A stretch of 41,232 bases of DNA. Origin: a virus. Its lineage: Duplodnaviria; Caudoviricetes. Shown here one piece after another: positions 12,268 to 37,061 of this stretch (positions are counted from its first letter, which is position 1; each line of letters begins with the position of its first letter). The translations under genes and the position numbers were made by a program. Location: the IMG/VR virus record IMGVR_UViG_3300035148_000256, positions 1-41,232 of that record; one strand, given 5' to 3'. The notes beneath the pieces are model-generated. The model did not search any database, was not told the origin of the DNA, and worked only from the letters and a program-made list of their open reading frames with translations.

Positions 12268-13386
12268 ATGCCGAACACGAACGCCGCCGCCGACGCGATC
12301 CTGAACAGCTTGACCTTCGGCGTGGAGATCGAGTGCTACGTGAACAGCGCGTTGTTCCGGCAGCGCGGTTGGTCGGTGGGCGGCTACCACCGAGGCACGC
12401 GGATCAGCGGCTTCAACTTCGAAGCGCAGCACGACGGGTCGTTGAGCAACCCGCCGACCCCGAGCCACATGGGAGTGGAGTTCGTGAGCGGCATCCTGCG
12501 CGGCGCCGCTGGCCTCGCGGAGATCGCCCGCATGTGCGAGGCGCTGGCGCAGATGGATGCCCGCGTGAACGACACCTGCGGCCTGCACGTGCATGTGTAT
12601 TGGGCCGACAGCAACACTGCCGAGCAGATGTCGAAGCTGGTCGCCAGCGTAGCGAATCACGAGTTGGGGTTGTTTGCCGTGACCGGCACGCGCCGCCGCC
12701 TCACCTCGCACTACGCGCGCCCGATCGCCCCCGACTACCGCGCGCTGGACACGATGACCACGATGCGCGAGTTGGTGCAGTGCGGCGCGGCGGGCAACCG
12801 CTACCACACGCTGAACCTCGCGCACATCGTGACGCGGCAGGGCGGCTACAGCTACGGCAGCGCGGCGCCCACGGTCGAGTTCAGGGTGTTTGCCGGAACG
12901 GTGAGCGCGCTGAAGATCAACGCCTACGTGATGCTGTGCGTGGGGCTGGTGCAGAAGGCGATCACGCCGCGCCAGCACAAGGTCAGCTATGACGCGCCGG
13001 TCACCGTGGCGACCAGCGTGGCGCGCAGCGGCGAAGGCGCCGTGGCTTGCGAGCGCCTCCTGATCCACCTGAACTGGAATCGCGGCGCGGGCGCCACGAC
13101 CTCGACCGATGTGACGCGGTTCGGCGCGCTGTGCAGCCTCGATGAACTGGCGCCCTACATCAGCGAACTGCGCCGCCTCGCCCGCAAGTTCGACCGCCCC
13201 GCGAACGCGCCGCGCGCCCGCCGCCGGATGCCGCGCGCGACCACGGCCACGACGCCCGCCACGACGCCCGCCACGACCCCGACCGCCCGCGTGCCGTGGC
13301 ACCTGCGCGTGACCCCGGAACAGCGGCAGGCCAACATCGAGCGCGCCCGCGCCCGCCGCGCGCGGCTCGCGCGGAACGCGCGGTAG
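12268..13386 (+). CDS. Putative amidoligase (COOH-NH2 ligase, Amidoligase_2 type) with a basic C-terminal tail
   Basis: TFGVEIE, HDGSL, EFVS, TCGLHVHV, RYHTLNL and TVEFR motifs. Confidence 0.85.
   Translation: MPNTNAAADAILNSLTFGVEIECYVNSALFRQRGWSVGGYHRGTRISGFNFEAQHDGSLSNPPTPSHMGVEFVSGILRGAAGLAEIARMCEALAQMDARVNDTCGLHVHVYWADSNTAEQMSKLVASVANHELGLFAVTGTRRRLTSHYARPIAPDYRALDTMTTMRELVQCGAAGNRYHTLNLAHIVTRQGGYSYGSAAPTVEFRVFAGTVSALKINAYVMLCVGLVQKAITPRQHKVSYDAPVTVATSVARSGEGAVACERLLIHLNWNRGAGATTSTDVTRFGALCSLDELAPYISELRRLARKFDRPANAPRARRRMPRATTATTPATTPATTPTARVPWHLRVTPEQRQANIERARARRARLARNAR
13246..13281 (+). repeat. 12-bp tandem repeat x3 encoding ATTP
   Basis: GCCACGACGCCC twice plus GCCACGACCCCG. Confidence 0.7.
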
Positions 13387-13466
13387 TGCTACGGGGCGCG
13401 GGCGGGGCCGATCGCCCCGCCTGCGCCCGCCTAACGTGCCACAGCAGCCACCTACAGGAGGACACG

Positions 13467-13676
13467 ATGAACCGAGACACAGCACACGCATTGAGGCAAG
13501 TGGGGCGCGGGCGCAACCCGCGCGCCGAGGCGATGCGCGCGACCGCCGCGCTGCGCCGTGAGATGTGCGACGCGATGGCGCACGGCGGGGGCGACGCGGT
13601 GCTGGCGCTGATGCGCGAGATGCAGGCGACCGTGCGCGCCGAGCGCGTGCGCCGCGCCACCGAGCGCGCACAGTGA
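13467..13676 (+). CDS. Small helical hypothetical protein
   Basis: AGGAGG RBS; ATG 13467. Confidence 0.6.
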   Translation: MNRDTAHALRQVGRGRNPRAEAMRATAALRREMCDAMAHGGGDAVLALMREMQATVRAERVRRATERAQ

Positions 13677-13680
13677 GGGC

Positions 13681-13709
13681 TTGATCTGGACGCTGGTTTG
13701 GGATACGAT
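13681..13709 (+). promoter_or_regulatory. Promoter P4
   Basis: TTGATC-17 nt-TACGAT; TTGGGATA core shared with P1-P3. Confidence 0.55.
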
Positions 13710-13749
13710 AGGTCACGCAACACGATCACGCAGTAGAGGAGACGACGCC

Positions 13750-14568
13750 ATGTGTGTTATCGCCATTTGTGAGAAGCAGCCGACGATCACTGACCTGCGT
13801 GCCATGTGGGACGCCAACCCGCAGGGCGCGGGCCTCGCGTGGAGCGACGGCAAGACCGTCCACTACAAGCGCGGCATCATGACCTTCGACGCGCTGCGCG
13901 AGGCCGTGGGCAAGATGAGCGGGCCGTTCGTGGTGCATACGCGCATCAGCACGGTCGGCGGCACGCGGCCCGACCTGTGCCACCCGTTCGTCGCGTCGCC
14001 CTCCTCGCCGCTGGCGCTCAAGGGCAAGGCGCCGATGGTGTTGTTCCACAACGGTCACTGGGGCGATTGGGCGAACAACCTGCGCGAGTCCACGGTCAGC
14101 ACCGGGGCGCGCGTGCCGGATGGCGCCTTCAGCGACTCGCGGGCGATGGCGGTGCTGGTGGGGCGCCACGGCCAGAACTTCGCGCGGCTGATCCCCGACT
14201 CACAGCGCGTGTGCATCGTGACCGCCACCTCGATCGCGCGCTACGGCAAGGGCTGGACGCAGGTGCGCGGCATGTGGGTCAGCAACGAGAACTGGCTCCC
14301 GCGCGAGCAGCAGGCGCCGTGGTATGTGAGCAACGCGCGCGGCTCGCGGTCGTGGTCCCGCAGCGAACTCCTCCTCGATCCGCCGAAGCGCCGCGAGCCG
14401 GTGGTCGAGCCGACGATGGACGACGTTGTCGATGATGGCGACCCCGTGGAGATGGACCCCGACGCCGATGTGGACGCCTGCGACACCGACGAGCAGTGCG
14501 CCGAAACCGACTACTTGTTCCCCGAGGTGAATGCGGTGCGCGCCGCCTGCGCCCGCGACCGCAAGTAA
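13750..14568 (+). CDS. Class II glutamine amidotransferase (Ntn hydrolase)
   Basis: N-terminal M-C, NPQGAG, HTRIST.G, CHPF, HNG and SDS motifs; acidic tail. Confidence 0.85.
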   Translation: MCVIAICEKQPTITDLRAMWDANPQGAGLAWSDGKTVHYKRGIMTFDALREAVGKMSGPFVVHTRISTVGGTRPDLCHPFVASPSSPLALKGKAPMVLFHNGHWGDWANNLRESTVSTGARVPDGAFSDSRAMAVLVGRHGQNFARLIPDSQRVCIVTATSIARYGKGWTQVRGMWVSNENWLPREQQAPWYVSNARGSRSWSRSELLLDPPKRREPVVEPTMDDVVDDGDPVEMDPDADVDACDTDEQCAETDYLFPEVNAVRAACARDRK

Positions 14569-14622
14569 CAACGCAGCCGGGGCGCGGGATTGGCCCGCGC
14601 CCCAACCGTGAAGGAGACGACG

Positions 14623-15546
14623 ATGATCAAGACTGCCGTGCGTACGATCACGCCAGAAGTGGCGACGCGACTTCTGGAAACCAACACCGTCAACCGCGTG
14701 CTGCGCCAGTGGAAGATCGACCAGTACGCGCGCGACATGAAGGCGGGCAAGTGGAAGCTCACGCATCAGGGGATGGCGCTCTCCACGGAGGGCAACATCC
14801 TCGACGGCCAGCATCGGTTGTGGGCCGTGGTGGAGAGCGGCGTGACGATCGAGTGCATGGTCACCACCGGATTCGAGCGCGAGATCGCCGCCTACATCGA
14901 CTCCGGGTTGGGCCGCACGATGGCCGACCACCTGCGCATCGGGTTCGGCGTCCACGCGGGCAACATGGCGATCGCCGTGGCGCGCCGCATCGTGCGCGGT
15001 CGCGGGCAGACCCGACCCACGACGCACGAAGTTCACGAAGCCTACACGCAGCATGAGAAGGCGATCACGCTGGCGCTCAAGAGTTGGCCGCGCGCCGTGC
15101 GCGGCGTGACAACGGTGCCGATCGCGACCGCGATGGCCCGCGCCAGCTACCACACCGACGAGTCGATGATCCTGCGGTTCGGCGAGGCGCTGTGCGAGGG
15201 GCGCTACTCCGACGACGGCGACGACCCGATCCGCATCCTGCGCAACTGGCTCACCGACCGCGCGCCAAGCGCCTCGTCCGAGAAGGCATCGGACCTGATC
15301 TACGCCAAGGCCGAGCGCGCGTTGTTCGCCTTCCTGCGGCATGAGAAGGTGACCACGCTGTATCCGTCGCCCGCCGAATTGTTCCCGCTGCCGGAGGAAG
15401 CCACGACCACCGTGCGGATGCGCGCCGTGGGCGACGCCAACCGCGCCGTGACGGTCAAGGTCGCGGCCACATCGCGGAAGACACGCAAGCGCACCGGCAA
15501 GGCGTCGGCCACCGAAACGAAGTCGCTGCGCGCGAGGGCGAGGTAG
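14623..15546 (+). CDS. ParB/Srx-like DGQHR-motif protein
   Basis: ITPE.A..LL..N..NR, YARDM..G.W and ILDGQHRL motifs. Confidence 0.75.
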   Translation: MIKTAVRTITPEVATRLLETNTVNRVLRQWKIDQYARDMKAGKWKLTHQGMALSTEGNILDGQHRLWAVVESGVTIECMVTTGFEREIAAYIDSGLGRTMADHLRIGFGVHAGNMAIAVARRIVRGRGQTRPTTHEVHEAYTQHEKAITLALKSWPRAVRGVTTVPIATAMARASYHTDESMILRFGEALCEGRYSDDGDDPIRILRNWLTDRAPSASSEKASDLIYAKAERALFAFLRHEKVTTLYPSPAELFPLPEEATTTVRMRAVGDANRAVTVKVAATSRKTRKRTGKASATETKSLRARAR

Positions 15547-15548
15547 CG

Positions 15549-15794
15549 ATGGAACACACACACGCGACCGAACCCGCGCACAACGTCGCCTCCGATGTGC
15601 GGTCGATGCTGCGCGAAGCCGAGCGCACCATGCAGGCGATGATCTCGGTGTCGCGCTGGCTGGAGTTGAACCCCGCGCTGACGCCGCAGGATCGCGTCGC
15701 CATGATCGCGCGCCTCGATGTGGCAACGCACCGGCTGCGCGAGCAGCGCGACAACCTCGCGGCACTGCTCGCAGAGAGGGGGGCGTCGTCATGA
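15549..15794 (+). CDS. Hypothetical protein
   Basis: Tightly packed ORF with GAGG RBS. Confidence 0.6.
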   Translation: MEHTHATEPAHNVASDVRSMLREAERTMQAMISVSRWLELNPALTPQDRVAMIARLDVATHRLREQRDNLAALLAERGASS

Positions 15795-16351
15795 CCGCCG
15801 TGCTGAGGCCGGTTTGCGATACGTTGATGGCCGCGCTCGATCCGGCCACGCCGTCGATCGGGGCGTTCTACGGCCTGAAGGATGCGGGGCTGTCCTGCAC
15901 CTTCACGATCGCCCGCCCCGGCTTGCGCCACGTGCGCGGTCGCAAGGATGCCGTGCGCGGGCCGTGGATCGTCACCGTGGACATCGAGGCCGGTCCCGAC
16001 GAGGCGATCGTGTGGTTGGCGCGCGATCGCCACCGCGCATCCAAGCTGCGCTATCCCGACCGCGCTTCGCTGGAGCGCGTCGTTGACCGCCTGTATGCGT
16101 GGGCGCGCCGCAAGCACGCACACTGGACGGCGATCCTCGACCTCGATCGCCAGATCACGGTCGGCATGACCACCAACGGCGAGCGATTCGGCGCGGCGCT
16201 GTCGCGCGAAATCGACCGCACCGAGCGCCCGCTGGACTACGACATGATGACGACCGAGGACGCCTTCGGCTGGCTGGAGTGGATTGAACTTCAGCGTCGC
16301 GCTGGAGCGATGAATCGTGATAAACTAAGCGGGAAAGGAGGGCATGAATGA
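15791..16351 (+). CDS. Hypothetical protein
   Basis: ATGA overlaps at both ends. Confidence 0.6.
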   Translation: MTAVLRPVCDTLMAALDPATPSIGAFYGLKDAGLSCTFTIARPGLRHVRGRKDAVRGPWIVTVDIEAGPDEAIVWLARDRHRASKLRYPDRASLERVVDRLYAWARRKHAHWTAILDLDRQITVGMTTNGERFGAALSREIDRTERPLDYDMMTTEDAFGWLEWIELQRRAGAMNRDKLSGKGGHE

Positions 16352-16710
16352 ACGCACGACGGCGGCAGGCGACGCGGCGCGGGGGCGCGCGACCGGGCAG
16401 CGGGCCGAAATCGCAATACCCCGGCAAGCGGTGGGAACACTGCGTGTCGCTCATGCTGCCAACCATCGTCGCGCTCGACGCGCGGCGCGGTGACCTGAGT
16501 CGCAACGATTGCATCGAACACCTGCTGCGCACGCGCGCGAGCGCGGTCACGCGGCCCACAACGAGAGGAGGACGGAAGATGCCGCGCAGCCTGCGCCTCA
16601 CCGACGAGGGGTCGCGCCTGCTGCGGCTGCACGCACAACGGGCGCGCATGACCCCGAGCGCCCTTGTGGAGACCCTGATCTTGGAACACGGCAACGCACA
16701 CACGGAATGA
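16348..16710 (+). CDS. Putative DNA-binding regulator (RGGARPGSG motif + two ribbon-helix-helix-like units)
   Basis: AAGGAGG RBS; VSLML...LSRNDCIEHLL and RSLRLT...MTPSALVETLI patterns. Confidence 0.6.
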   Translation: MNARRRQATRRGGARPGSGPKSQYPGKRWEHCVSLMLPTIVALDARRGDLSRNDCIEHLLRTRASAVTRPTTRGGRKMPRSLRLTDEGSRLLRLHAQRARMTPSALVETLILEHGNAHTE

Positions 16711-16719
16711 GGACATCAC

Positions 16720-17730
16720 ATGAACGACACCATGCGGAGTGAGGGGGCGACGATGGCGCTGGCGATCACTGATCCCGAAGCGGACGCGCTGGCGCAGGCG
16801 AACGGCGTCGATCACGGGCTGGCCGACGACGGATTCACCAAGCACGGATTGAGTGCCGACGAGACCGCCACGTTGACCGCGCCGTTCAACGAGGACGAGT
16901 GGGACATCCTGCCCACGGGCGAGGTCTACGTCAACCACATGAAATACCGCGAGCGCCTCACGCGCGTCTTCGGCGCGATGGGATGGGGCATGCGCGCGAC
17001 CGACGCGCTGCGGTTCGATGCTGACACGGGCGTCGCCTATCAAACGTGGGTCTTGATGGCGCGCGGTGTCCCGATCGCCAAGGCGGTCGGCAGCGCGCGG
17101 TACTTCAGCGAGGCCGAGAAGCGCCTCGACTACGCCGACACCGCCGAGGCCGCGAAGTCGAACGCGCTGACGCGGTGCTGCAAGGATCTGGCGATCGGCG
17201 CCGATCTCTACGACCGCCGCAAGGCCGAGGGCTGGAAGCGGATGCACGCGATCAAGGTGTGGCGCGAGAACGTGAAGAAGCCCGAGTGGAGGCGCGTGGA
17301 TGCGCCGCCGTTCTGGAACGAAACCGGGGTCGCGGGCGATTCGCCACGACAGGCCGCGCCAGCGGCCACCGGAGCCACGAACGCCAGCGCCAGCGGCCCG
17401 TCCCATGCGGCGCCGCCCTCGCGCGCTACGGGGCCGACAGCGGCCACGGCCACCGTGCCGCCCACGGCTACCATGCGCGAGGTGGGGCCGACCGCCGTGC
17501 AGGATGTGGTCATCAAGAAGACCGGCACCAAGCAGGACGGCACGCCTTACAAGGTGTATTCGGTCAAGAGCGACCTCGGCACCTTCGACACCTACGACGA
17601 GAAGCTGTACGACGCCGCACGCACGGCGCTCAACCGGGGGCAGAACGTGATCCTCACGGTCTCGAAGAAGCCCGATCGCAGCGGGCGCCTGTGGGATGTG
17701 CTGACCGCTGTGTGCTTGCTGAACAACTAG
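16720..17730 (+). CDS. Rad52-superfamily single-strand annealing protein, Mgm101-like
   Basis: DILPTGEVYVNHMKYRERLTRVFGAMGW and EAAKSNALTRCCKDL.I...LYD motifs. Confidence 0.8.
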   Translation: MNDTMRSEGATMALAITDPEADALAQANGVDHGLADDGFTKHGLSADETATLTAPFNEDEWDILPTGEVYVNHMKYRERLTRVFGAMGWGMRATDALRFDADTGVAYQTWVLMARGVPIAKAVGSARYFSEAEKRLDYADTAEAAKSNALTRCCKDLAIGADLYDRRKAEGWKRMHAIKVWRENVKKPEWRRVDAPPFWNETGVAGDSPRQAAPAATGATNASASGPSHAAPPSRATGPTAATATVPPTATMREVGPTAVQDVVIKKTGTKQDGTPYKVYSVKSDLGTFDTYDEKLYDAARTALNRGQNVILTVSKKPDRSGRLWDVLTAVCLLNN

Positions 17731-17791
17731 CCGACCAACGGCGGGGCGCCTGCGGGCGCCTCGCCTTCACCGTGCAGGAGACGACGCCAAC

Positions 17792-18490
17792 ATGAGCAGC
17801 ATCTACCTCGACATCGAAACCGCTCCGATCGACAACGCCGACCAGTTCATCGAAGAACCGGAGGCGCCGTCGAACTACAAAGACCCCGCCAAGATCGCGG
17901 CCTACATCGCGGAGGCCAAACAGATCGCGGTCGCCAAGTGCGCCCTCGACTTCGGGCTGCTGCGCATCGTGGCGATCGGCATCGGCCACTTCGATGAGCG
18001 CGGCGAGCCGATGGTGAACGGGCGCATCTGCAAGACCACGGACGGCGAGACCGCCGCGCTGGTGGAAGCGTGGGCGCGCTGCGAGGCCGCGTTCAAGGCG
18101 GGCGGCATGGTGGTCGGCTACAACCTCGCCAGCTTCGACATCCCGGCGATGATCACGCGGTCGTGGATCTTGGGTGTGCGGCCCGCGTTCGATGCGGTGC
18201 GTCGCTACGGCGACCCGCACGTGCTGGATCTGATGAGCGCGATCAGCTTCAACGATCCGACCCGCCGCAAGCGGCTCGCGTGGTGGGCGAAGCGCATGGG
18301 CTGGACGACCGACGACACGCACAGCGGCGCGGAGGTGCCTGCGCTGGTGGCCGCTGGTGACTGGAACGCGGTCGCGGATCACGTGACGTCCGATGTGCGC
18401 CTCACGATGCGGCTGCACCAGATGATCGGGGGCGGGCGCGTGGGCTGGAACACCGTCGCGCCCGAGCCGCTGCCGGATGATGTGCTGTGA
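17792..18490 (+). CDS. DEDD-type 3'-5' exonuclease (PolB-exo/RNase H-like)
   Basis: YLDIET, VGYNLASFDIP, LDLM and H..SDV motifs. Confidence 0.8.
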   Translation: MSSIYLDIETAPIDNADQFIEEPEAPSNYKDPAKIAAYIAEAKQIAVAKCALDFGLLRIVAIGIGHFDERGEPMVNGRICKTTDGETAALVEAWARCEAAFKAGGMVVGYNLASFDIPAMITRSWILGVRPAFDAVRRYGDPHVLDLMSAISFNDPTRRKRLAWWAKRMGWTTDDTHSGAEVPALVAAGDWNAVADHVTSDVRLTMRLHQMIGGGRVGWNTVAPEPLPDDVL

Positions 18491-18496
18491 TTGTGG

Positions 18497-18605: not shown

Positions 18606-18629
18606 AGTGAAGACGTGGGGTTGCAAACG

Positions 18630-18950: not shown

Positions 18951-18970
18951 TCTGGATGAGCCTGTAGACT
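18942..18970 (+). promoter_or_regulatory. Promoter for the replication operon
   Basis: TTGCAC-17 nt-TAGACT. Confidence 0.55.
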
Positions 18971-18973
18971 GCG

Positions 18974-23146: not shown

Positions 23147-24250
23147 ATGCCACGCACGATCAGTGTGCCGCCGCCGACCCCGCTGCCCGATGCCGTGATC
23201 GTCGCCGCCCGATCAGGTGATGATGGATTCGTGGTCACCGCGCAGGGGTTGACCGTCGAAGGCACGCCATCGTTCGATCAGTGGGCGCGCTTCGGCGAGA
23301 CCTTGCGACGAATGGGCGTGGCGTTGTCGTGGGCGGTGGGCGACTGGCTGGTCTATGGCGAAGGCCGTGGCGATTGGGGCGAGCGGTACGCGCAGGCGCT
23401 CGACGCGCGGGTGATGACCTACGAGTCGCTGCGCGTGGCCGCGCACGTGTCGAGCCGGTTCGCGCACGCGGCGCGCCACCGCAACCTGTCGTGGTCGCAT
23501 CACAAGGCGGTGGCGAAGTTCCCGTCCGATGCCGCCGAGCGCCTGCTGAACTTGGCCGAGACGCACAACTGGTCGGTCGCCGAACTGCGCGAGCAGGCGC
23601 GCATCGTGGAGGAGGCCGAGCGCATCACGTTCCACGAATTCCCGATCGGCACCTACGGGCTGATCTTCGCCGATGTGCCGTGGACGCGGCTCGACCAACC
23701 GGCGCTCCTTGACATGGCCGATCGCGTGCGCACGCTGGCCGCGACCGACTGCGTGCTGGCGCTGTGGGCGCCCGATGCGAAGGTCGCCGCCGCGCTGGAG
23801 GTGATCACCGCGTGGGGCTTCACCTACCGGACGAGCGCCGTGTGGATCAAGGATCTGCCGCAGACGGGGCGCTACTTCCGATCGCGCCATGAATGGTTGC
23901 TGCTCGCGGGCCGTGGCAACGCGCCGATGCCCGCTGAAGATTTGCGACCGGATTCCGTCTTCGAGGTGCCTGATCCGACCACGGGGCGCAAGCCGGATCG
24001 GATCTACGAGATCATCGAAGAGATGTTCCCGCGCATCCCGCGCGTGGAGTTATTCGCAACGAGAGGAGCGCGACCCGGATGGCACATCCCACAACACGGT
24101 CCCGTCGCACGCCCCGTCGCCGCCACGCCCGACGTCGTATCAGCGAGCGTTCTCGATGCTACGGTTGCCAGCACGACGACGACCACCACGCCGAACGCGA
24201 TGCGCCGCGCCGCCCGACGCCTAGCGTCGAGCGTTACCGGCCAGCCGTGA
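23147..24250 (+). CDS. LmbU-like domain fused to an MT-A70-family adenine methyltransferase
   Basis: WAVGDWLVYGE...LSWSHH..VA (LmbU-like); IFADVPW, WGFTYRT..VWIK, HEWLLL, RKPD and ELFA (MT-A70). Confidence 0.78.
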   Translation: MPRTISVPPPTPLPDAVIVAARSGDDGFVVTAQGLTVEGTPSFDQWARFGETLRRMGVALSWAVGDWLVYGEGRGDWGERYAQALDARVMTYESLRVAAHVSSRFAHAARHRNLSWSHHKAVAKFPSDAAERLLNLAETHNWSVAELREQARIVEEAERITFHEFPIGTYGLIFADVPWTRLDQPALLDMADRVRTLAATDCVLALWAPDAKVAAALEVITAWGFTYRTSAVWIKDLPQTGRYFRSRHEWLLLAGRGNAPMPAEDLRPDSVFEVPDPTTGRKPDRIYEIIEEMFPRIPRVELFATRGARPGWHIPQHGPVARPVAATPDVVSASVLDATVASTTTTTTPNAMRRAARRLASSVTGQP

Positions 24251-24426
24251 TGTTCTACGATGCGACCGATCGCGACGATGGGTCGCTCACGCGGCACGAC
24301 ATCTGGCGCACCTTGATGGCGACGCCTGATCTAGCGAACTCGCCACGCCGCCTCGATCGCCTGCGCGCATCGTGGCGCGTTGTCGTGGAGCGCCTGTGGC
24401 ACGACAAGCAGGAGGTGGGTCCATGA
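24250..24426 (+). CDS. Hypothetical protein
   Basis: TGATG and ATGA overlaps. Confidence 0.5.
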   Translation: MFYDATDRDDGSLTRHDIWRTLMATPDLANSPRRLDRLRASWRVVVERLWHDKQEVGP

Positions 24427-24677
24427 AGCAGCGGGGGATTCGCGCCATGCTGGATGATCTGGTGCGCCTCTACAATGAGCGCAAGGAGATCCGGCTACTG
24501 GCCCGCAGTGTGGGCCACTGCGAGCGCAATCTGGTGGAGGCCGTGCGCAGCATGGCCGAGCAAATCCACAGCGACCAGCGCCGGTTGACGGCGCTTGATG
24601 CGATGATCACGCACGAGACGTTGTCACGCGACAACAAAGCCAAGGACGCGCAGCCGCCGACCGTGGCCGCGCACTGA
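24423..24677 (+). CDS. Hypothetical coiled-coil protein
   Basis: AGGAGG RBS. Confidence 0.6.
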   Translation: MKQRGIRAMLDDLVRLYNERKEIRLLARSVGHCERNLVEAVRSMAEQIHSDQRRLTALDAMITHETLSRDNKAKDAQPPTVAAH

Positions 24678-24690
24678 CAAGCAGGACGCC

Positions 24691-25938
24691 ATGCCGCGAC
24701 GACGATCACGACCGGGCGAGGTGCCGACTGTGTGGCGCAACCGCATCGTCGGCTACGGATCGGAAGCCCCCGACCAGCTACTCGCCAACCCCGACAACCC
24801 GCGCATCCATCCGGGGCCGCAGCAGGAGGCGTTGATCGGGTTGCTGGCCGACGTCGGCATCGTGCAGAACATCATCGTCAATAAGCGCACCAGCGAGGAG
24901 TGGCCGGTCGGCGAGCGCGGCGTGGAGACGCTGGTGGATGGTCACCTGCGCGTGAAGGCGGCACTCAGCGAGGGGCAGGCGACGATCCCGGTCACCTATG
25001 TCGATCTGACGCCGCGCGAAGAGCGGCTGGTGCTGGCGTTGCTGGACCCGATCACGGGGCTGGCCGCGACCGACCCCGCGATGATGCAGGCGCTTCTCGA
25101 TCGGGTGCAGACGGGGCAGGCGTCCTTGCAAGGGCTGCTCGATTCGCTGCGCGAGGCGTCGCCGAACCCGCACAGCGGTCGCACTGATCCCGACGCGATG
25201 CCGGAGGCGCGCGAGACGAACATCCGGCGCGGCGATCTGTTCAAACTTGGCGACCACTGGCTGCTCTGCGGCGACACGACCAACGCCACCGACGTCGCGC
25301 GCCTCATGCGCGGCGCCGTGGGCCACTGCATCTTCACCGACCCGCCCTACGGCGTGAACTACGACGGCGGGGCCACGCGGCGGTCCACGCTCGCCAACGA
25401 TCATGTCGGCACGAACATCTACGCGGAGTCGCTGCCGAACTTGGCGCGCGTGGTCGATGCGAAGGCGGCGCTGTATCTGTGGCACGCCGATGGGCTGGTG
25501 GCCGCGACCGCCGCGATCGCGTCGGGCTACGAAATCACCGCGCAAATCGTGTGGGCGAAGAACCACGCGCAGTTCGTCACCGCTGCGCACTACAAGGGCA
25601 AGCACGAATCCTGCTACTACGCACACAAGCGCGGCCACGCCGCACGCTGGCACGGGCAGAACAACGAGGTCACGTTGTGGGAGTGCGACCGCAGCGCGCG
25701 GAACGATTTCCATCCCACGCAGAAGCCGGTCGAGTTGGCCGAGCGCGCGATCTCCAATAGCACGGTCACGGGGCAGGTGGTGGTCGATGGCTTCTGCGGG
25801 GGAGGCACGACGCTGATCGCGTGCGAGCGGTTGGGCCGCAAGTGCTACACGATCGAAATCGAGCCGAGCTACGTGCAGGTCACGATCGACCGATGGGAAG
25901 CGTTCACGGGCAGGCGCGCCGAGAAGGTGGAGGACTAG
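24691..25938 (+). CDS. ParB-like N-terminus + N6A/N4C DNA methyltransferase (beta class)
   Basis: NPDNPRIH and VDGHLR; then TDPPYG, HPTQKP and DGFCGGGTT. Confidence 0.9.
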   Translation: MPRRRSRPGEVPTVWRNRIVGYGSEAPDQLLANPDNPRIHPGPQQEALIGLLADVGIVQNIIVNKRTSEEWPVGERGVETLVDGHLRVKAALSEGQATIPVTYVDLTPREERLVLALLDPITGLAATDPAMMQALLDRVQTGQASLQGLLDSLREASPNPHSGRTDPDAMPEARETNIRRGDLFKLGDHWLLCGDTTNATDVARLMRGAVGHCIFTDPPYGVNYDGGATRRSTLANDHVGTNIYAESLPNLARVVDAKAALYLWHADGLVAATAAIASGYEITAQIVWAKNHAQFVTAAHYKGKHESCYYAHKRGHAARWHGQNNEVTLWECDRSARNDFHPTQKPVELAERAISNSTVTGQVVVDGFCGGGTTLIACERLGRKCYTIEIEPSYVQVTIDRWEAFTGRRAEKVED

Positions 25939-26507: not shown

Positions 26508-26895
26508 TCCCGCCCCGGCGAAAACCGCGTGGCAGCGATACGAGGAGGAGTGCCGAGCGACCGCTGCGCTGTTCCCGGCGCCGCCCGCTGCGCCCGAGAA
26601 CGAACGCCGCAAGGCGAAGGGGCAGGCCCGCGCGCTGACCGGCAGCGACCCCGACTGGCGGCTCGCAGCGGGCCGCTGGCTGCAAACGCTCCCGCGCGGG
26701 CATCAGTTCACCTCGGAGGATTTGGTCGCCGCCTGCGGCCTGCCACGGGGCGCCATCGGCACGAACCAGAACAACGCGGTCGGGGCGCTGATCTCCGGGT
26801 ATGCGCGGCGCGGGGTGATCCGCGACACAGGGCGGTGGATCAAATCGCAGCGGGCGTCGAGCCACGCCGCGAAGCTGACCGTGTGGGAGGCGTAG
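26485..26895 (+). CDS. Hypothetical protein, possibly winged-helix
   Basis: GAGGAGACGA RBS; FTSEDL...NAVGA...ARRGVI..TG....S....SH....VW. Confidence 0.7.
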   Translation: MTGKLFDDPAPAKTAWQRYEEECRATAALFPAPPAAPENERRKAKGQARALTGSDPDWRLAAGRWLQTLPRGHQFTSEDLVAACGLPRGAIGTNQNNAVGALISGYARRGVIRDTGRWIKSQRASSHAAKLTVWEA

Positions 26896-26897
26896 GG

Positions 26898-27425
26898 ATG
26901 CAGTATGGGCGGTTCACCTACGGGGTCGAACACATCCGCACCGAGTGGTCGCAGGCCAGCGTCGAGATCGGCAGCTTCACCTCGATCGCGACCGGCTGCA
27001 CCATCATCCTCGGCGGCAATCACGACCCGCTGCGCGGCACGACGTTCCCGTTCGGCTACCGCGACCAGAAGACCTTCCCGTGTGCGCCGAGCGGCTTGCC
27101 ATCCACGCGCGGGCCAGTCAAGATCGGCAACGACGTGTGGATTGGGTCGCACGTGAGCATCATGTCGGGCGTGCGCATCGGCGACGGCGCGGTCGTGGGC
27201 GCCTTCAGCCACGTGGTGTCGAACGTGAAGCCGTATGCCGTGGTCGGGGGAAATCCGGCGCGGCTCTACTACTACCGGCATCCGCCCGAGGTCGTGAAGC
27301 GCCTGCGCGCGATGCGGTGGTGGGACTGGCCGGTGCCGCTGATCGCGGAGGCCGCACCGCTGCTGAATGCGCGCGACCTTGACCCGTTGTTCGCGTGGTG
27401 GGACCGCCACAAGGAGAACACATGA
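26898..27425 (+). CDS. CatB/Vat-related hexapeptide (LbH) O-acetyltransferase
   Basis: IGSFTSIA, IGNDVWIG, GVRIGDGAVVGA, VGGNPAR and WWDW motifs. Confidence 0.9.
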   Translation: MQYGRFTYGVEHIRTEWSQASVEIGSFTSIATGCTIILGGNHDPLRGTTFPFGYRDQKTFPCAPSGLPSTRGPVKIGNDVWIGSHVSIMSGVRIGDGAVVGAFSHVVSNVKPYAVVGGNPARLYYYRHPPEVVKRLRAMRWWDWPVPLIAEAAPLLNARDLDPLFAWWDRHKENT

Positions 27426-28678: not shown

Positions 28679-29142
28679 CCGCGCAGGTGCAGGCCAAGTT
28701 CGTTGAAGCCCTCTCGTCGGGCAACTATCGGCACGTGGCCTGCGCCTACGCGGGCATCAGCACGGGCGCGTTCCATCGGTGGATGGCGAAGGCCGCAACG
28801 CAAACACGCGGAAAGTTCGTAGAGTTTCGAAACGCGGTGGAGGAGGCCGAGACCCGCGCGCAGATGCTTCTCGTCGCCGTGGTTGCCTCGCACGCCACAC
28901 GCGACCCCAAGATCGCGATGGAGATGTTGTCGCGCCGCTGGCCGCGCGAGTGGGGCAAGAGCGACCGGCTGGCCGTGACCGCGCAGGCGGCGCCCCCGTT
29001 GGATGCGCTGCCGGATGACGAGTTGAACGCCGCGATCGAGGCGCGGCTGGAGGAAATCGAACACGCACGGCGCCGCCTCGACGGTCGCCGCGAACCGCTG
29101 GTGCTGGAAGCACACGCAGAGGAGACGACCAATGCCGAGTAG
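28651..29142 (+). CDS. terS: Putative terminase small subunit (HTH)
   Basis: GRPDKLT...ALSSGNYRHVACAYAGIS...FHRW...LSRRWPREWG; upstream of TerL. Confidence 0.65.
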   Translation: MPGGRPDKLTAQVQAKFVEALSSGNYRHVACAYAGISTGAFHRWMAKAATQTRGKFVEFRNAVEEAETRAQMLLVAVVASHATRDPKIAMEMLSRRWPREWGKSDRLAVTAQAAPPLDALPDDELNAAIEARLEEIEHARRRLDGRREPLVLEAHAEETTNAE

Positions 29143-29524
29143 AACCCCGACCGCCAACCCGAACCCCGAGCCGCGCACCATCGACCACTTCGACGTCGCC
29201 AGCGGCCACCGGATCGAACTGGACCGCGTGGGCGTGAACGTGGTCATGCGCACCAGCGACGGCAACGAAGACGCAGAGATGCTGCTGGATGTGGATGACG
29301 CCCGCCGCTTGGCGCGCTCGCTCGACTCGGCCACCGTGGACCGGATCTCGCCGCGCCAGTGGTCGCCCTCGGAATCCGCGACCATGTTCGCGCGCTACCT
29401 GCTCACGCGCCCCGGCTATGAGGCGTTGGGGATGACCGTGGCGATGCACCTGCGGCAGTTCATCAGCGACCACGAACTGCACGAAGTGCGCGCCGATTTC
29501 GAAACCTACCGCGTGAGGCGCTGA
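29132..29524 (+). CDS. Hypothetical protein
   Basis: GGAGACGAC at 29121. Confidence 0.65.
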   Translation: MPSRTPTANPNPEPRTIDHFDVASGHRIELDRVGVNVVMRTSDGNEDAEMLLDVDDARRLARSLDSATVDRISPRQWSPSESATMFARYLLTRPGYEALGMTVAMHLRQFISDHELHEVRADFETYRVRR

Positions 29525-29778: not shown

Positions 29779-29797
29779 TCAGCGAGCCGCGTTCTGT

Positions 29798-29939
29798 CTC
29801 GGCTGCTCGCGAGCGCGATCGCGATTCCCGCACGTTGTGCGATCCGAGATCGATTCTTGCCTCGGCTGCTCGCGAGATCGGTCGCGGAATCGATGCTCTG
29901 CGTGACCAGAGTGCGACTCCCGCCTCGGCTGCTCGCGAG
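29798..29939. repeat. Three exact 16-bp repeats CTCGGCTGCTCGCGAG at a 63-bp period
   Basis: Starts at 29798, 29861 and 29924; the 47-nt spacers are only about half identical. Confidence 0.9.
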
Positions 29940-29980
29940 TGCAGCGCGAAATCGCGCGATCTCGCAATCGGAGAGTCGTG

Positions 29981-30169
29981 ATGAGGCTGTTGCGCGCCGC
30001 GTGGCTGGCGCTGGTGACGGCGGTCGCCTGCCGCATGAACGAACACTCGCTGATGATGGCGTTGATCATCTCGCACGGTTGGCGCGGCGAGGCTGGTATT
30101 CTACTCGACGGCACGCACTTCGCGGAGTTGACCAAGATGCGCACCGAGGGCGCCCGTGATGACCTGTGA
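29981..30169 (+). CDS. Small hypothetical protein with hydrophobic N-terminus
   Basis: GGAGAG RBS; MRLLRAAWLALVTAVAC. Confidence 0.4.
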   Translation: MRLLRAAWLALVTAVACRMNEHSLMMALIISHGWRGEAGILLDGTHFAELTKMRTEGARDDL

Positions 30170-30923
30170 CCACACCGTGATGGCCCGCCACGGGGCCGCG
30201 CTGGTGGACTGCCCGATCTGCACCAAGCGCGACCTCGACGCCTACCTTGAGCAATACGCGCCGAACCTGAACGCGATTGCCAGCAAGCACGGCACCGACA
30301 AGGCCGCGACCTACCACGACTACTGCCGCACCTACGAGCGATACTTCGGCCCGCGCCGCTACGCCATCAAGCGCGTGCTGGAGATCGGCATCCTGCACGG
30401 GCAATCGCTGCGCACGTGGCGCGACTACTTTCCGAACGCGAACATCGTGGGCGTGGACAACGACCACACCATCTTCGATCTTGGCCCGCGCATCGTGTGC
30501 ATCCACGCCAACGCGCACGACCCGAACGCGCTGGCGGCGCTGGCCGATCAGGGGCCGTGGGACATCATCATCGATGACGGCTCGCACATGGCCGCAGCAC
30601 AGGCGCTCGCGGCCAACGCGCTGCTCCCGTCGTTGGCGCCGCGTGGCTTCTACGTGATCGAGGATTTCGCGACCGGCTATTGGGCCGAGTTCCAATCGGA
30701 CCTGATGCCGCAGCCGTCTGAGGGCGCGCTGGATCTGGCAACGCGCCGCCTGATCAACCGCCTCACCGACGCCGTGAACAAGCGCGGCCTGCGCGCACAT
30801 GGCGACCGCCGCGCGGCGATCTGTTTCGACCACTACGACGAGGGCGATCTGGACTGGTGGGAGTTGAACATCGAGGCTGTGCATCTGCACAACTCGCTGG
30901 TCGTGATCGAGCGTCGCCCGTGA
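30156..30923 (+). CDS. Class I SAM-dependent O-methyltransferase (MycE/TylE sugar-MTase-like)
   Basis: GTDK...HDY...YE.YF, VLEIG...G.SL..W..YF, DIIIDDGSH and GFYVIED motifs. Confidence 0.85.
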   Translation: MMTCDHTVMARHGAALVDCPICTKRDLDAYLEQYAPNLNAIASKHGTDKAATYHDYCRTYERYFGPRRYAIKRVLEIGILHGQSLRTWRDYFPNANIVGVDNDHTIFDLGPRIVCIHANAHDPNALAALADQGPWDIIIDDGSHMAAAQALAANALLPSLAPRGFYVIEDFATGYWAEFQSDLMPQPSEGALDLATRRLINRLTDAVNKRGLRAHGDRRAAICFDHYDEGDLDWWELNIEAVHLHNSLVVIERRP

Positions 30924-32386: not shown

Positions 32387-32387
32387 C

Positions 32388-32705
32388 ATGCGAGCATGGA
32401 CGGGGCAAGCGGTCGGTGATCGCGCGCAGGTGCGCCGCGAGTTCGCCAAGCGCGCGGTCGTGCGGCCCGTGGTGGAGCGGTGGTTGGGCGTGGACTGGTA
32501 TCCGGCGACGTTCGTGTGCGAGAACGTGCGGATCTGCCGGGAAGCAAATGGCACGGTCAGATGCCGACCATCTGCTAAGATGTTGCGCGTGCGCGCCGAA
32601 CGATGGCGGCTGATCGGGTTCCGCCTGCTGTGGGCGTGGCGGTATGGTCGCCAGTGGGACGAGCAATCGTTGTCGCCGACAACACCGCCGCAGCGCGGGG
32701 CGTGA
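32388..32705 (+). CDS. Arg/Trp-rich hypothetical protein
   Basis: Fills the gap between TerL and portal. Confidence 0.45.
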   Translation: MRAWTGQAVGDRAQVRREFAKRAVVRPVVERWLGVDWYPATFVCENVRICREANGTVRCRPSAKMLRVRAERWRLIGFRLLWAWRYGRQWDEQSLSPTTPPQRGA

Positions 32706-32718
32706 AAGGAGCGAGGCC

Positions 32719-34236
32719 GTGCCAGTAGACTCAAGGCATCTCGACTATGCGTTGGCAAGCGCGCGGTGGGTCCGGTGCCGGGATGCCTTCGGCGGCTCCG
32801 ACGCCATCAAAGCCAAGCGCACCGACTACCTCCCCAAGCTGACCGGCCAAAGCGAAGCCGACTACGACGCCTACTTGAAGCGCGCCATGTTCTATCCGGC
32901 GACCGACCGCACCGTCGTCGGGTTGACCGGGATGGTGACGCGCCGCGAGCCGCAGGTGGTGCAGTGTCCCGCCTCGGTGCTGCCGCACCTGAAGGATGTG
33001 ACGCTCACCGGCCTCTCGCTGGACGATCTGGCCGCGCGCATCGTGACCGAGATCCTGATCGTGGGGCGCGGGGGTGTGCTGGTCGATCTGCCATCAAGCG
33101 GGAGCGAGTTGGCGCGACCGTATTGGGTGTCGTGGAACGCCGAACAGATCATCAACTGGCGCACGGGCAAGGGCAAGAACGGCGAGACGCGCCTCACGAT
33201 GGTCATGCTGCACGAACGCGTCGCCGAAGAGGGCGCGGGCGATCCGTTCACCGACACGCTGGTCGATCAGTTCCGCATGTTGGCGCTGGTGAAAGACACC
33301 TACACGGTCACGATCTGGCGCAAGTCCAAAGAGGGCAACGCATGGGTCGGCCAGCCGCCGATCATTCCCACGCGGCGCGGCAAGACGCTCGACTTCATCC
33401 CGTTCACCTTCGTCGGCCCGCGCACGATCGAGCCGGGGATCGACAAGCCGCCGCTGCTCGACCTTGTCGATGTGAACCTGTCGCACTTCCTCAGCAGCGC
33501 CGACCTTGAACACGGGCGCCACTTCACCGCGCTGCCGACGCCGTGGATCACCGGCTATCAGGACACCAGCGGCCAACCGATGACGATCGGCAGCGGGGCC
33601 GCGTGGACGTTCCAGAATCCCGACGCCAAGGTCGGCATGTTGGAGTTCACGGGGCAGGGCTTGAGCGAGTTGCGCTTGGCGCTCGAATCCAAGGAACGCA
33701 TGATGGCGGTCTTGGGGGCGCGCATGCTGGAGCAGCAGCCGAAGGCGAATGAAACCGCGACCACGGTTATGCTGCGCCAGTCGGGAGAACACGCCACGCT
33801 CGCCACGGTCTCGAAAGCGGTGTCGGCGGCGCTGTCGCGGGCGTTGGGCTGGCACGCATGGTGGGTCGGCAGCTACGAGCCGAACGCCTCGTCGGATGAA
33901 CCAGCGGTCGCGCTGAACACCGATTTCATGGACATGACGCTCACCGCGCAAGAGGTGCAGGCGTTGATGGCGATGTGGCAGGGCGGGGGCATCAGCTACG
34001 AGACGTTCTACTACAACCTCCAGCGCGGCGAATGGGCGCGCCCGAACATCACGGTCGAGGACGAGAAGGACGCGATCGCGGCTGAGGAGGATCAGGCTGA
34101 GGCCGACCGCATCGAAGCGGGCCTGCCGCTTCCCGGCGAGGAACTGCCGCCCGAAGAGGGCGACGATGGCGAGGACGCAGGCGAGGACGGCACCGAGGGC
34201 GCAGGTGAGGATGGCACCGACGAATCGGCTGACTAA
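32719..34236 (+). CDS. Portal protein (DUF4055 type)
   Basis: YLP...Y..YL.RA.FY and PPLLDL..VNL.H...SAD motifs; acidic tail; position after TerL. Confidence 0.88.
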   Translation: MPVDSRHLDYALASARWVRCRDAFGGSDAIKAKRTDYLPKLTGQSEADYDAYLKRAMFYPATDRTVVGLTGMVTRREPQVVQCPASVLPHLKDVTLTGLSLDDLAARIVTEILIVGRGGVLVDLPSSGSELARPYWVSWNAEQIINWRTGKGKNGETRLTMVMLHERVAEEGAGDPFTDTLVDQFRMLALVKDTYTVTIWRKSKEGNAWVGQPPIIPTRRGKTLDFIPFTFVGPRTIEPGIDKPPLLDLVDVNLSHFLSSADLEHGRHFTALPTPWITGYQDTSGQPMTIGSGAAWTFQNPDAKVGMLEFTGQGLSELRLALESKERMMAVLGARMLEQQPKANETATTVMLRQSGEHATLATVSKAVSAALSRALGWHAWWVGSYEPNASSDEPAVALNTDFMDMTLTAQEVQALMAMWQGGGISYETFYYNLQRGEWARPNITVEDEKDAIAAEEDQAEADRIEAGLPLPGEELPPEEGDDGEDAGEDGTEGAGEDGTDESAD

Positions 34237-34238
34237 TC

Positions 34239-37061
34239 ATGGCCGACGATCCGCAGTGGGTTCGTGATCTCCATGTGATCGCGGATCGCAGTTCGCCCGC
34301 GTATCAACGCGCGTTCATCGAGAGCGTGATTGAGGCGCGGGCGGCTGTGGACGCTTCGGCCATCACCGCCGCGCTACGTGCCGGGGATACCGCGACCGCG
34401 TTCGCGCTCGCCAGCGACGCCGCCTCGGTGCTGGACGCCAGCTTCCAGACGCGGCTCCACGCCGTCACGGTTGACAACCTGCGGCGCGGGGCCGCTGCTG
34501 CGATGAGCGCAGAGAACTTGACCCTACAGGGCGGGTTCAATGTGTTCAACGCCGAGACGCAGGAGTGGGCGCGCGTCTACACCTACGATCTGGTCCGCGA
34601 GATGCGCGACGATCAGATCGCCGCCATCCGCAGCGCGATCCAGCGCACGACCACCGGATCGAAAACCTACATGGAAGCGGCCCGCGAGATCCGGGGCAGC
34701 ATCGGCCTCACGGAGCGCATGGAGCAGACGGTCGAACGCTACCGTGCGCGCGTGGCCGCGCAAGGGCTGAAGCCCGACCGCGTGGAAACGCTGACCTCGC
34801 GCTACCGCGACAAGATGATCCGCCGCCGCGCCAAGACGATCGCGCGCACCGAATCCGTGCGGGCCGTCAATCAGGGGCAGGTGCAGGCGTGGCGCCAGTG
34901 GTCGCAGGCGCGCAAAGTGCCGGTGATGAAGCGGTGGATCGTCACCAAGGACGATCTGCTCTGCGAGGTGTGCAAGCCGATGCATCGGCAGACCGTGCCG
35001 TTGAACGCGCAGTTCCACGCGCTGACCGGCAAGCAAGTCGATGCGCCGCCGCTGCATCCGAACTGCCGGTGCGTGGTCGCGCTGGTGCGCGTGGCACGCG
35101 CGCAAGAGAAGGCCGCGTTGCAGGGGATGCAGGCGCCAGTCACGCCGCTGCGCGTGCGGTTCAAGCCAAAGACCGCGCCACCGCTCTCGGTCGCCAACGC
35201 CGCGATTCAGGAAGCCGTGCAGCAAGCGGTCGTCGCCGTCGCCGCAGGCAGCGCGCCCGTTGCCAGCGCGCCCGCGCGACCGGCACGATGGAGCGAGCGC
35301 GTCACGCCTGAACAGCGGCAGCGCAACATCGATCAGGCTCGCGCCCGTCGCGCCCGCCTGCGGCAGCAGCAGGCCGACCGCGCCGCCGCCAAGGAGCAGG
35401 CCCGCCGCGAAGCAGCCAAGGCCGACGCCCGCGCGCAGGCCAAGGCCAGCCGCGCCCGTGCGGAGGCCCGCACCGCCGAACTGCGCGCCCGTGCGGAGGC
35501 CGACGCCAACGCCGCGCGCCGCGCCGCCGCAGAGCAGGCCGAGGCCGACCGCATCGCCACGATCGCCCGCCTGCGCCGCGAGGCCGCAGAGCGCCGCGCC
35601 CGCGTGGAGGCCATGCAGCAACGCGAGGCCGAATCCCGCCTCGCCGTCAAGCGGGCGACCGAGGCACGCAAGGCCGCAGAACGGGCGCGGGCGCTGGCCC
35701 GCGAGGAGGACGCCCGCCGCGCCGCCGCCACCGCCCGCCGCAACGCCGAGATCGCCGCCCGCCTGCGCGCCGAGAGGCTGGCGCAGGAGGCGCGACAAGC
35801 CGCGCGGGAGGCCGCAGCGCGGGCGAACGCCGCCCCGGTCGTGTCTTCCCCTGCCGCCGCCCCCGGCGCGCCCCAAGGGGCCACCATCAGCCGCTACGTG
35901 CTGGACGCGGAGCGGCGGGGGATCGCCAGTTCCCTCGCCACGCAGTCGCCGATGAACACGCGGATCGGGCAGGCGTTCCGCAGGTGGACCGGGCCGATCG
36001 ATGAAAGCTACACGGTCACGGATGACGCATGGTCGGCGTTCCTGCGCAGCCGCGAGTTCGCCACCGCGCAGCGCGAGGTGCTGGCCGCGAATCCCGGTTT
36101 GGCGACCGCTGCGCCGCGATCGGCGTCGGGCATGCGGTCGGTCATCCGCAGTGAGGAGGAACGCCGCCGCGCCCGCGAGCGATACGCGCGGCTACAGGAA
36201 CGCCGTCGCGCCGCCGCCGCCTCGGGCCAGCCGGTGCCGCGTGCCTCGCGCATGACCGCGACCACGCCGCCACCTGCACGCCGCCGCGCGAGCAGCCCGT
36301 TCAACCTCAAGGCAGAGCCGCCAGATCCCAAGGACTACATCAGCCGGTTCGGATCGGTGCAAGACGGTCTCGGGCAAGGGCTGGCGCGCCAGAAGTTCGA
36401 GGAGTTGTTCGGGCGCGGGGCCACGGTCGAGGATGCGTTCCGCAACCTCGCCGTGCCGGTGCCGAACGGATCGCTGTGGAACGTGCGCGCGACGCCGTCC
36501 TACCACGGCAACGGGTTCTCGATCAGCGGGCAAGCCGATGGCGCTCGCATCACGCGGTCATTCACGTGGGACGCCAACGGCCACATCACGGTCGATCACG
36601 ACTACTTCCAGATCCGCGACGACCTCCAGAAAAGCAACTTCTCCAAGCGGCAACTACACAAGCAGTTCCGCTTCTACGCCGAGAACGGCATCAACACGGT
36701 CAAGGTTCACGCGAACATCGACGTCGGCGGCTATGCGTGGGCGCGTGCGGGGTTCACGCCGTCAGCGGGCAGCGTGAGTGAACTGCGGGATTGGGTCGGC
36801 ATGCGGCTCTCGCGGCTGCGCGCGTCGGGGTCCATCACGGATCAGCAAGCCTCGGTGATCGAGCATCTGCGCAGCCGCATGGAGAAGGGCGACAAGCTGG
36901 CGGTGTGGGACACGGCGGATCTGGAGGATGTGGTCACCTACAACGGCAAGACGATGAAGCTCGGGCAACACCTGCTGGTCAACTCCAACTGGTACGGCAG
37001 CGTGAACATGAAGTCGGCTGAGGCCGCAGAACGGATCATGAAATACTATGGCGTCATCTAA
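34239..37061 (+). CDS. MuF (SPP1 gp7-like) minor head protein with long charged linker and C-terminal GNAT-like domain
   Basis: RAKTIARTE, KRW....D...C..C and PPLHPNCRC; Arg/Ala/Glu helical linker; VKVHANIDVGGYAWARAGF. Confidence 0.85.
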   Translation: MADDPQWVRDLHVIADRSSPAYQRAFIESVIEARAAVDASAITAALRAGDTATAFALASDAASVLDASFQTRLHAVTVDNLRRGAAAAMSAENLTLQGGFNVFNAETQEWARVYTYDLVREMRDDQIAAIRSAIQRTTTGSKTYMEAAREIRGSIGLTERMEQTVERYRARVAAQGLKPDRVETLTSRYRDKMIRRRAKTIARTESVRAVNQGQVQAWRQWSQARKVPVMKRWIVTKDDLLCEVCKPMHRQTVPLNAQFHALTGKQVDAPPLHPNCRCVVALVRVARAQEKAALQGMQAPVTPLRVRFKPKTAPPLSVANAAIQEAVQQAVVAVAAGSAPVASAPARPARWSERVTPEQRQRNIDQARARRARLRQQQADRAAAKEQARREAAKADARAQAKASRARAEARTAELRARAEADANAARRAAAEQAEADRIATIARLRREAAERRARVEAMQQREAESRLAVKRATEARKAAERARALAREEDARRAAATARRNAEIAARLRAERLAQEARQAAREAAARANAAPVVSSPAAAPGAPQGATISRYVLDAERRGIASSLATQSPMNTRIGQAFRRWTGPIDESYTVTDDAWSAFLRSREFATAQREVLAANPGLATAAPRSASGMRSVIRSEEERRRARERYARLQERRRAAAASGQPVPRASRMTATTPPPARRRASSPFNLKAEPPDPKDYISRFGSVQDGLGQGLARQKFEELFGRGATVEDAFRNLAVPVPNGSLWNVRATPSYHGNGFSISGQADGARITRSFTWDANGHITVDHDYFQIRDDLQKSNFSKRQLHKQFRFYAENGINTVKVHANIDVGGYAWARAGFTPSAGSVSELRDWVGMRLSRLRASGSITDQQASVIEHLRSRMEKGDKLAVWDTADLEDVVTYNGKTMKLGQHLLVNSNWYGSVNMKSAEAAERIMKYYGVI

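Follow-up and report, generated by a model that had tools for sequence, protein, structure and literature searches.

A 24-residue peptide shared by an amidoligase and a MuF head protein in one phage genome

The shared peptide

The record IMGVR_UViG_3300035148_000256 represents a virus of the class Caudoviricetes, and the window analyzed here is the whole stretch from position 1 to position 41,232 of that record (41,232 nucleotides [nt]). Two genes in this window that lie 22 kb apart, one for an Amidoligase_2 enzyme and the other for a MuF (SPP1 gp7-like) protein of the head module, encode closely similar 24-residue peptides, at the end of the former protein and inside the latter.

12268..13386, + strand: Amidoligase_2 enzyme of 372 amino acids with a glutamine-synthetase fold (PF12224, 68.6 bits against a cut-off of 22; phrog_2443)
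13297..13368, + strand: first copy of the peptide, residues 344 to 367 of the 372 in the amidoligase, followed by five residues and the stop codon (translation, alignment)
34239..37061, + strand: MuF (SPP1 gp7-like) protein of 940 amino acids (PF04233, 44.1 bits at residues 181 to 280, cut-off 29.6)
35289..35360, + strand: second copy of the peptide, residues 351 to 374 of the 940 in MuF, at the start of a proline-free charged stalk (translation, alignment)

The two copies are identical at 19 of 24 residues and at 55 of 72 nt (17 of 72 differ), and 8 of the 19 identical residues are encoded by different, synonymous codons. The nucleotide positions of the copies and the residue and codon counts had been reported in an earlier note made from the DNA sequence alone, and we confirmed them. 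The local alignment score of the copies was 107, compared with a maximum of 88 in 4 × 1,000 composition-preserving shuffles (0 of 4,000 reached the observed score); the note had named similarity no better than that of composition-matched shuffles as a refutation of its proposal. The 24-residue peptide shared by the amidoligase and MuF is a real feature. Pro/Ala-rich linkers precede both copies, and the 12-nt blocks that flank the two copies agree at just 3 to 6 of 12 positions, meaning that the flanks are unrelated. A six-frame search of the window found no third copy (next best score of 30 versus 110).

The two halves of the peptide differ in character. The ARARRARL end is of low complexity, supplies 8 of the 19 identities, and sits in 9-nt tandem repeats; the first 14 residues alone, 11 of which are identical, were equalled in 2 of 200 locally shuffled proteomes. 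We found no RNA structure within the coding sequence of the peptide and no significant match to a known family in Pfam, PHROGs, NCBIfam, or PDB sequences. Those searches also gave no support to a suspected likeness to helices of actinobacterial IHF and DUF3106, and this idea was set aside.

Structurally, the peptide is predicted to be a helix with a Thr-Pro-Glu cap and seven arginines, carried on a disordered linker. In the model of the amidoligase (predicted local distance difference test [pLDDT] score of 88; best fold matches to glutamine synthetases), the helix spans residues 350 to 371, starting at the Thr-Pro-Glu cap, with pLDDT scores of 84 to 87. The earlier note had called the peptide a portable docking helix; the predicted helix on a flexible linker fits that description, whereas a conserved docking system is unsupported by the distribution data below.

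Synonymous sites between the copies are saturated (11 identical codons observed, 11.0 expected at random), the ratio of nonsynonymous to synonymous change (dN/dS) is about 0.26, and none of 3,000 neutral simulations kept 19 residues. It is thus the peptide, not the DNA, that the copies share, as the note had suggested. The saturation shows selection on the peptide, but the data cannot place that selection on the amidoligase copy, and synonymous saturation between two copies is not by itself proof of a shared function.

Relatives of the two proteins and genome context

The amidoligase has the glutamine-synthetase-like fold and the conserved Glu, His, and Arg residues of Amidoligase_2. Its closest relative, P0003, is 76% identical, has the same start and a short Arg-rich extension, and stops before the linker and the peptide. 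The gene and its surroundings include the following features:

12190..12219, + strand: sigma-70-like promoter site 5' of the amidoligase gene (9 of 12 matches, TG before the second hexamer; consensus match only)
13195..13239, + strand: Arg-rich extension beyond the usual end of the family, residues 310 to 324, common to P0003 (homologue alignment)
13246..13281, + strand: Thr/Pro/Ala linker, a 12-nt unit repeated 3.1 times (tandem repeat; low-pLDDT coil in the model)
13384..13450, + strand: strong hairpin directly after the amidoligase stop codon (z of -3.6), a likely terminator
13467..13676, + strand: open reading frame (ORF) of 69 amino acids with no significant family match
13750..14568, + strand: class II glutamine amidotransferase-like partner with a Met-Cys start and an acidic tail, without the peptide (weak PurF match, E value of 0.016)

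Our homologue set comprised 84 other amidoligases, an 85th match being a shortened version of the amidoligase encoded in the window itself. The peptide was absent from all 84 (best score of 31 versus 110), as well as from 80 of 80 viral amidoligase loci and 72 of 72 genome loci (152 loci). Members of the family usually end a few residues past a KYD or KFD sequence, and tails are 15 residues or shorter in 67 of the 72 genome loci. Fifty-nine of these genome loci, which hold distant relatives, have Planctomycetota titles, too distant for a host to be assigned. The tail of the window's enzyme (residues 310 to 372) contains 16 arginines and 2 acidic residues, and its last residues are encoded by a 9-nt tandem repeat.

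An ORF with a Met-Cys start follows the amidoligase gene in 56 of 80 viral loci. Three loci have the closest amidotransferase, and in two of them (L001 and L007) the amidoligase ends in runs of arginine. Sigma-70-like sites are enriched between positions 5400 and 17000 (4 sites versus 0.8 expected), and similar sites lie upstream of the amidoligase and, by eye, of the amidotransferase gene. The earlier note described the amidoligase as early; this timing is a prediction from the consensus match at 12190..12219.

The MuF gene sits in the head module between the portal and scaffold genes:

32644..34236, + strand: portal protein whose C-terminal tail is very acidic, with 26 Asp/Glu in the last 60 residues (phrog_145, DUF4055)
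36300..37058, + strand: GNAT-like C-terminal domain, residues 690 to 940 of MuF (model pLDDT of 91; widespread phage family)
37048..37236, + strand: ORF of 62 amino acids (weak but syntenic partner-family match, E value of 9.7; 44% identical to its counterpart in locus L081)
37298..39373, + strand: scaffold and P22-like coat (phrog_206, phrog_283, PF11651)

No prohead protease gene is annotated in the head module of the window, which comes from an incomplete record. MuF consists of the MuF domain, a linker, the peptide, a long Ala/Arg/Glu stalk, and the C-terminal GNAT-like domain, about 340 residues beyond the peptide. The peptide opens a proline-free Ala/Arg/Glu stretch of approximately 175 residues whose composition suggests a long helix, and it is likely the capped start of this charged stalk. 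We found one full orthologue of MuF, P0089 (58% identical), which has a diverged counterpart of the peptide at the same position; 11 of 24 residues are identical there, fewer in proportion than in the flanks (27 of 41 and 39 of 55). A further 66 GenBank phage records match the MuF domain only, at identities below 60%. Because the MuF orthologue has a counterpart and the amidoligase relatives do not, MuF is the native context of the peptide, which is foreign to amidoligases.

Wider searches returned few other carriers. In a profile search of 5.8 billion proteins, with 1,841 candidates scored, the window's MuF was the sole carrier, and a search of 1.84 billion proteins yielded only this MuF, P0089 (itself in the profile), and P0096. 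The last, a 96-residue triple repeat protein that appears unrelated, was discounted as a capped basic helix of a generic kind. The profile search for further proteins that the note had proposed therefore gave no further clear homologue. GenBank phages gave no match to the peptide, and there were no close relatives with DNA among the viral and metagenome contigs searched. The first ten residues, W..RVTPEQR, recur in five unrelated viral stretches, none of which extends into the second half of the peptide; this recurrence makes the first half look like a generic helix cap. A small viral protein (L235, 1438 to 1689, and L237) matches the amidoligase copy at nine of its first ten positions and nowhere after them, and we read it in the same way.

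The GNAT-like C-terminal domain belongs to a family for which we found 220 viral stretches and kept 80 (L081 to L160); the peptide was absent from all 80. The GNAT label given to this domain in the note is weakly supported. The top rows of a structure search were GNATs (best Z of 7.1, root mean square deviation of 3.9 over 128 residues), but the scores were modest (Foldseek E value of 1.3e-3 or weaker; sequence E value of 0.22). The Atlas cluster of the domain has 20% Acetyltransf_1 members. The canonical acyl-CoA loop of GNATs reads Q/R-x-x-G-x-G/A; the corresponding residues are QKSNFS in the window and QKSKFS in P0089, while the family consensus keeps QGxG. The family also has an invariant A(N)xD(V)GGY(A)W motif.

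Downstream of the GNAT-like domain, 45 of 80 loci encode a conserved small protein (55 to 85 residues); in L084, L087, and L088, the two are fused in frame. Three of these small partners had no Pfam match. The 62-residue ORF of the window is likely a distant, immunity-like member of this partner family, judging by position and weak similarity. Like known MuF toxins, the window's MuF combines a C-terminal extension with a downstream ORF of fewer than 150 amino acids, and the GNAT-like domain with its partner is a candidate for a new toxin-immunity pair of the MuF type. How novel the domain is may depend on the Ct_MAD profile given in the supplement of PMC5576092.

As a control for shared peptides, 160 loci and the window were compared, covering at most 10 kb on each side of the query, a span too short to reach from an amidoligase gene to a MuF gene 22 kb away. 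We detected 21 short matches common to otherwise unrelated ORFs. Most of these fall into three types of tag, present in 26, 5, and 2 of 80 loci and located in head modules of phages that encode the GNAT-like domain; their patterns are GSGN.GH.GRPG, F/W-D-x-x-Q/H-PR...G.W/F, and YN.CH.P. The tags recur ahead of effector modules and, within one genome, on unrelated proteins of the head region (L084, L087, L088, L096, L097, L106, L109, L121, L122, L138, L139, L150, and P0090), and they mostly occur where the GNAT-like domain lacks a MuF fusion. Among 50 domain clusters, 13 had only a tag, 15 only an upstream MuF-type Cys motif, none both, and 22 neither (P = 0.005 for non-coincidence, with crude patterns; L146 and P0090 carry both). 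None of the three types was seen on the + strand of the 80 amidoligase loci or the window; the shared peptide is none of these tags, and MuF would not need one. Four tag stretches had no Pfam match, and we found no relevant paper on the tags in the open-license literature. The GNAT-like effector family with its partner, and the tendency of tags to replace the MuF fusion, are more general than the shared peptide.

The window has a G+C content of 68%, and the record is classed as linear and approximately 45% complete. Fifty-six ORFs scanned with Pfam- and PHROG-type profiles fall into lysis, early, replication, and head modules. MuF polymorphic toxins are a feature of temperate phages; no integrase was found among the 56 ORFs of this partial record. 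One ORF of the window is relevant to recombination:

16720..17730, + strand: Mgm101/Rad52-like annealing protein (PF06420, 103.6 bits), a candidate agent of short-segment exchange, as suggested by its family

A gene for a PolB-type 3'-5' exonuclease adjoins it, the two together spanning 16720 to 18490. The genome contains one other internal duplication (5862 to 5973 and 8210 to 8319, 81% identical), which is a promoter and ribosome-binding cassette with near-consensus sigma-70 sites. Leader and ribosome-binding repeats of the AGAGGAGACGAC type lie ahead of several genes (6222 to 6256 with 6582 to 6613; 12253 to 12301 with 29117 to 29165). Elsewhere, positions 77 to 2464 encode a repetitive 795-residue protein that is rich in Ala, Thr, and Val and whose gene has numerous internal repeats; it matches no Pfam or PHROG family and is possibly a tail or surface fiber. 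Three methyltransferase genes are located in 23147 to 25938 and 30156 to 30923 (MT-A70, an N6/N4 type with a ParB-like N-terminal part, and Methyltransf_24), and a hexapeptide-repeat acyltransferase gene is located at 26529 to 27425. Short direct repeats with 63-nt spacing, 73% alike, occur among small ORFs 5' of the large terminase gene (29795 to 29954).

Origin and possible role of the amidoligase tail

The amidoligase tail is likely a lineage-specific, in-frame graft from MuF, and we tentatively favor the explanation that it would serve as a general tether, rich in arginine, to phage DNA or to the acidic tails of proteins. In the proposed sequence of events, the direction of transfer would be from MuF to the amidoligase: about 72 bp of a MuF gene, from the phage's own ancestor or from a sister phage, would have been joined in frame to the 3' end of the amidoligase gene by short-homology or illegitimate recombination, in this lineage only. 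The linker and the last residues may have grown through in-frame tandem slippage; the reading frame would be kept because the flanking repeat units are 12 and 9 nt long. We speculate that the tail was retained as an extension of a basic end that the amidoligase of this lineage already had. The absence of the peptide from amidoligase relatives, the counterpart in P0089, the Rad52-like protein, and the other internal duplication are consistent with a graft. The strongly acidic tails of the portal and the amidotransferase (26 and 19 Asp/Glu in the last 60 residues, respectively) point to possible partners for a tether.

Several observations weigh against a grafted tether. The similarity between the copies ends sharply on both sides. 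The amidoligase of L004, the third locus with a close amidotransferase, has an acidic tail. Binding to DNA or to acidic tails is a prediction from residue composition, and the conservation of W, V, P, N, and I favors a specific interaction over a purely electrostatic tether, unless the donor was a sister phage. Loss of the peptide in the P0003 lineage may be an alternative to its gain, and the comparison draws on one genome and one known orthologue of each protein. Finally, duplication within the genome followed by neutral evolution of the amidoligase copy fit at most 0.7% of simulation runs, compared with up to 39% for selection on both copies, a contrast inflated by our having picked the 24-residue segment for its identity.

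Next in order, though doubtful, is the explanation that the tail is a recently captured fragment of a sister phage's MuF gene that lies idle on the amidoligase, all selection having acted in MuF. In orthologue pairs that are approximately 80% identical, 24-residue windows with 18 to 20 identities average 6.7 synonymous differences, and 957 of 2,763 such windows (which are not independent) have at least eight; 19 identities with 8 synonymous changes would therefore be ordinary for sister phages. Because ordinary orthologue pairs show the same pattern, capture from a sister phage requires no selection on the amidoligase copy, and the tail is dispensable in all the amidoligase relatives examined. 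However, no MuF-like DNA flanks the amidoligase copy, searches of viral and metagenome contigs and proteins did not find the donor, and the repeats expanded in tandem on either side indicate that time has passed with the frame kept. Whether as a tether or as an idle fragment, the tail would clearly illustrate how pieces smaller than a domain are shuffled between unrelated genes of phages.

We rank lower, as unlikely, the possibility that the helix is a capsid-loading or hitch-hiking tag that binds the acidic tail of the portal, the scaffold, or MuF, such that the amidoligase would be packaged and delivered with the DNA; the note had offered a capsid-loading signal as its alternative. A tag and its partner would co-evolve, which predicts high identity within a genome and low identity between genomes, and this is what we see (19 of 24 within the window, 11 of 24 to the orthologue); the synonymous saturation of the copies also fits. 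The T4 capsid targeting sequence (CTS) (PMC3012670) and scaffold-dependent loading in P22 (PMC8402733) are precedents. The head-module tags of phages with the same GNAT-like domain, which are common to unrelated proteins and seldom coincide with a MuF fusion, keep a loading role alive by showing that such head modules have portable tags. Those tags nevertheless differ in sequence from the shared peptide, lie in the head module, and were not seen on the + strand of the window or of the 80 amidoligase loci. In addition, the amidoligase gene is separated from the head genes by 20 kb and follows a promoter site of the host type, its amidotransferase partner lacks the peptide, and none of the other amidoligases examined ends in a tail of this kind. 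A narrower proposal, slightly less probable, is a newly born, protease-independent C-terminal loading tag in which the start of the MuF stalk helix was copied onto the amidoligase and binds the acidic tail of the portal or the scaffold. If the tail is a loading tag, it shows that a phage can add an enzyme to its injected payload by a 72-bp copy, and it provides a candidate short C-terminal signal for a P22-like head.

The earlier note had proposed that the peptide may direct two enzymes, one acyltransferase-like and delivered by the virion, the other an amide ligase made early, to one target such as a host complex, in the manner of T4 Alt and ModA/B. Selection on the peptide, the GNAT-like character of the C-terminal domain, and the view that MuF fusions deliver effectors (PMC5512222, PMC5576092) lend this idea some plausibility, but we consider it highly improbable. 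The note had itself named absence from homologues as a refutation, and the peptide is missing from all 84 amidoligase homologues, from the 152 amidoligase loci, and from all 80 relatives of the C-terminal domain. Its divergence relative to the flanks in P0089 is unlike that of a binder of a conserved host protein. The peptide is also ~340 residues away from the catalytic domain, the glycine loop of motif A is altered in the window, and Alt and Mod are paralogous, which the amidoligase and the GNAT-like protein are not.

Convergence, chance, or misassembly is hardly credible: W..RVTPEQR does recur in viral stretches and the last eight residues are of low complexity, but the five stretches do not continue into the second half and no shuffle reached the observed score, and although no independent contig spans either copy (a lack that proves nothing), the tail lies between the native gene, the hairpin, and the conserved amidotransferase neighbor, and 17 of 72 nt distinguish it from the MuF copy.

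Comparison with known systems

The T4 CTS is an N-terminal leader that is removed by the prohead protease. It loads cargo and is conserved across T-even phages (PMC3012670). The shared peptide resembles it in being a short sequence common to otherwise unrelated proteins of one phage but is C-terminal on the amidoligase and internal in MuF, and it is confined to one genome, with 11 of 24 residues identical in the sole orthologue. The T4 system has a trimming protease; no protease gene is annotated in the head module of this incomplete record. Loading would be a reading by analogy here, and the peptide would work at best like the scaffold-dependent loading of P22 (PMC8402733).

Grafting can be compared with the mosaicism driven by Rad52-like proteins in phages (PMC3945230). 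Both involve exchange of diverged segments, and the window has an Mgm101/Rad52-like protein and an internal duplication. In this case, however, about 72 bp would join nonhomologous genes, with no breakpoint homology shown.

T4 Alt, ModA, and ModB provide a parallel in that each genome has one virion-linked and one likely early enzyme (PMC5512222). The T4 enzymes are paralogous ADP-ribosyltransferases with the same chemistry, whereas the GNAT-like and glutamine-synthetase folds of the window share only the 24-residue peptide. Phage polyvalent proteins, as described in the same paper, include GNAT-like domains in virion-linked multidomain proteins beside ADP-ribosyltransferase domains, an arrangement also seen in P0090 and L084. 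Two GNAT families are named in the available part of PMC5512222, which does not mention a conserved small partner gene.

Descriptions of MuF polymorphic toxins and SPP1 gp7 (PMC5576092, PMC6316719, PMC3482391) place the MuF domain between the portal and the scaffold or coat, as in the window, and the enzyme-like C-terminal extension with a small ORF directly 3' extends the likeness. The differences are that the available part of PMC5576092 names no GNAT toxin domain (no matches for "acetyl" or "GNAT") and that the available parts of the three papers describe no peptide common to an early gene; nor did we find a link between amidoligases and MuF in the open-license literature. SPP1 gp7 binds the portal (PMC6316719) and is called DNA-binding in the title of a reference in that paper.

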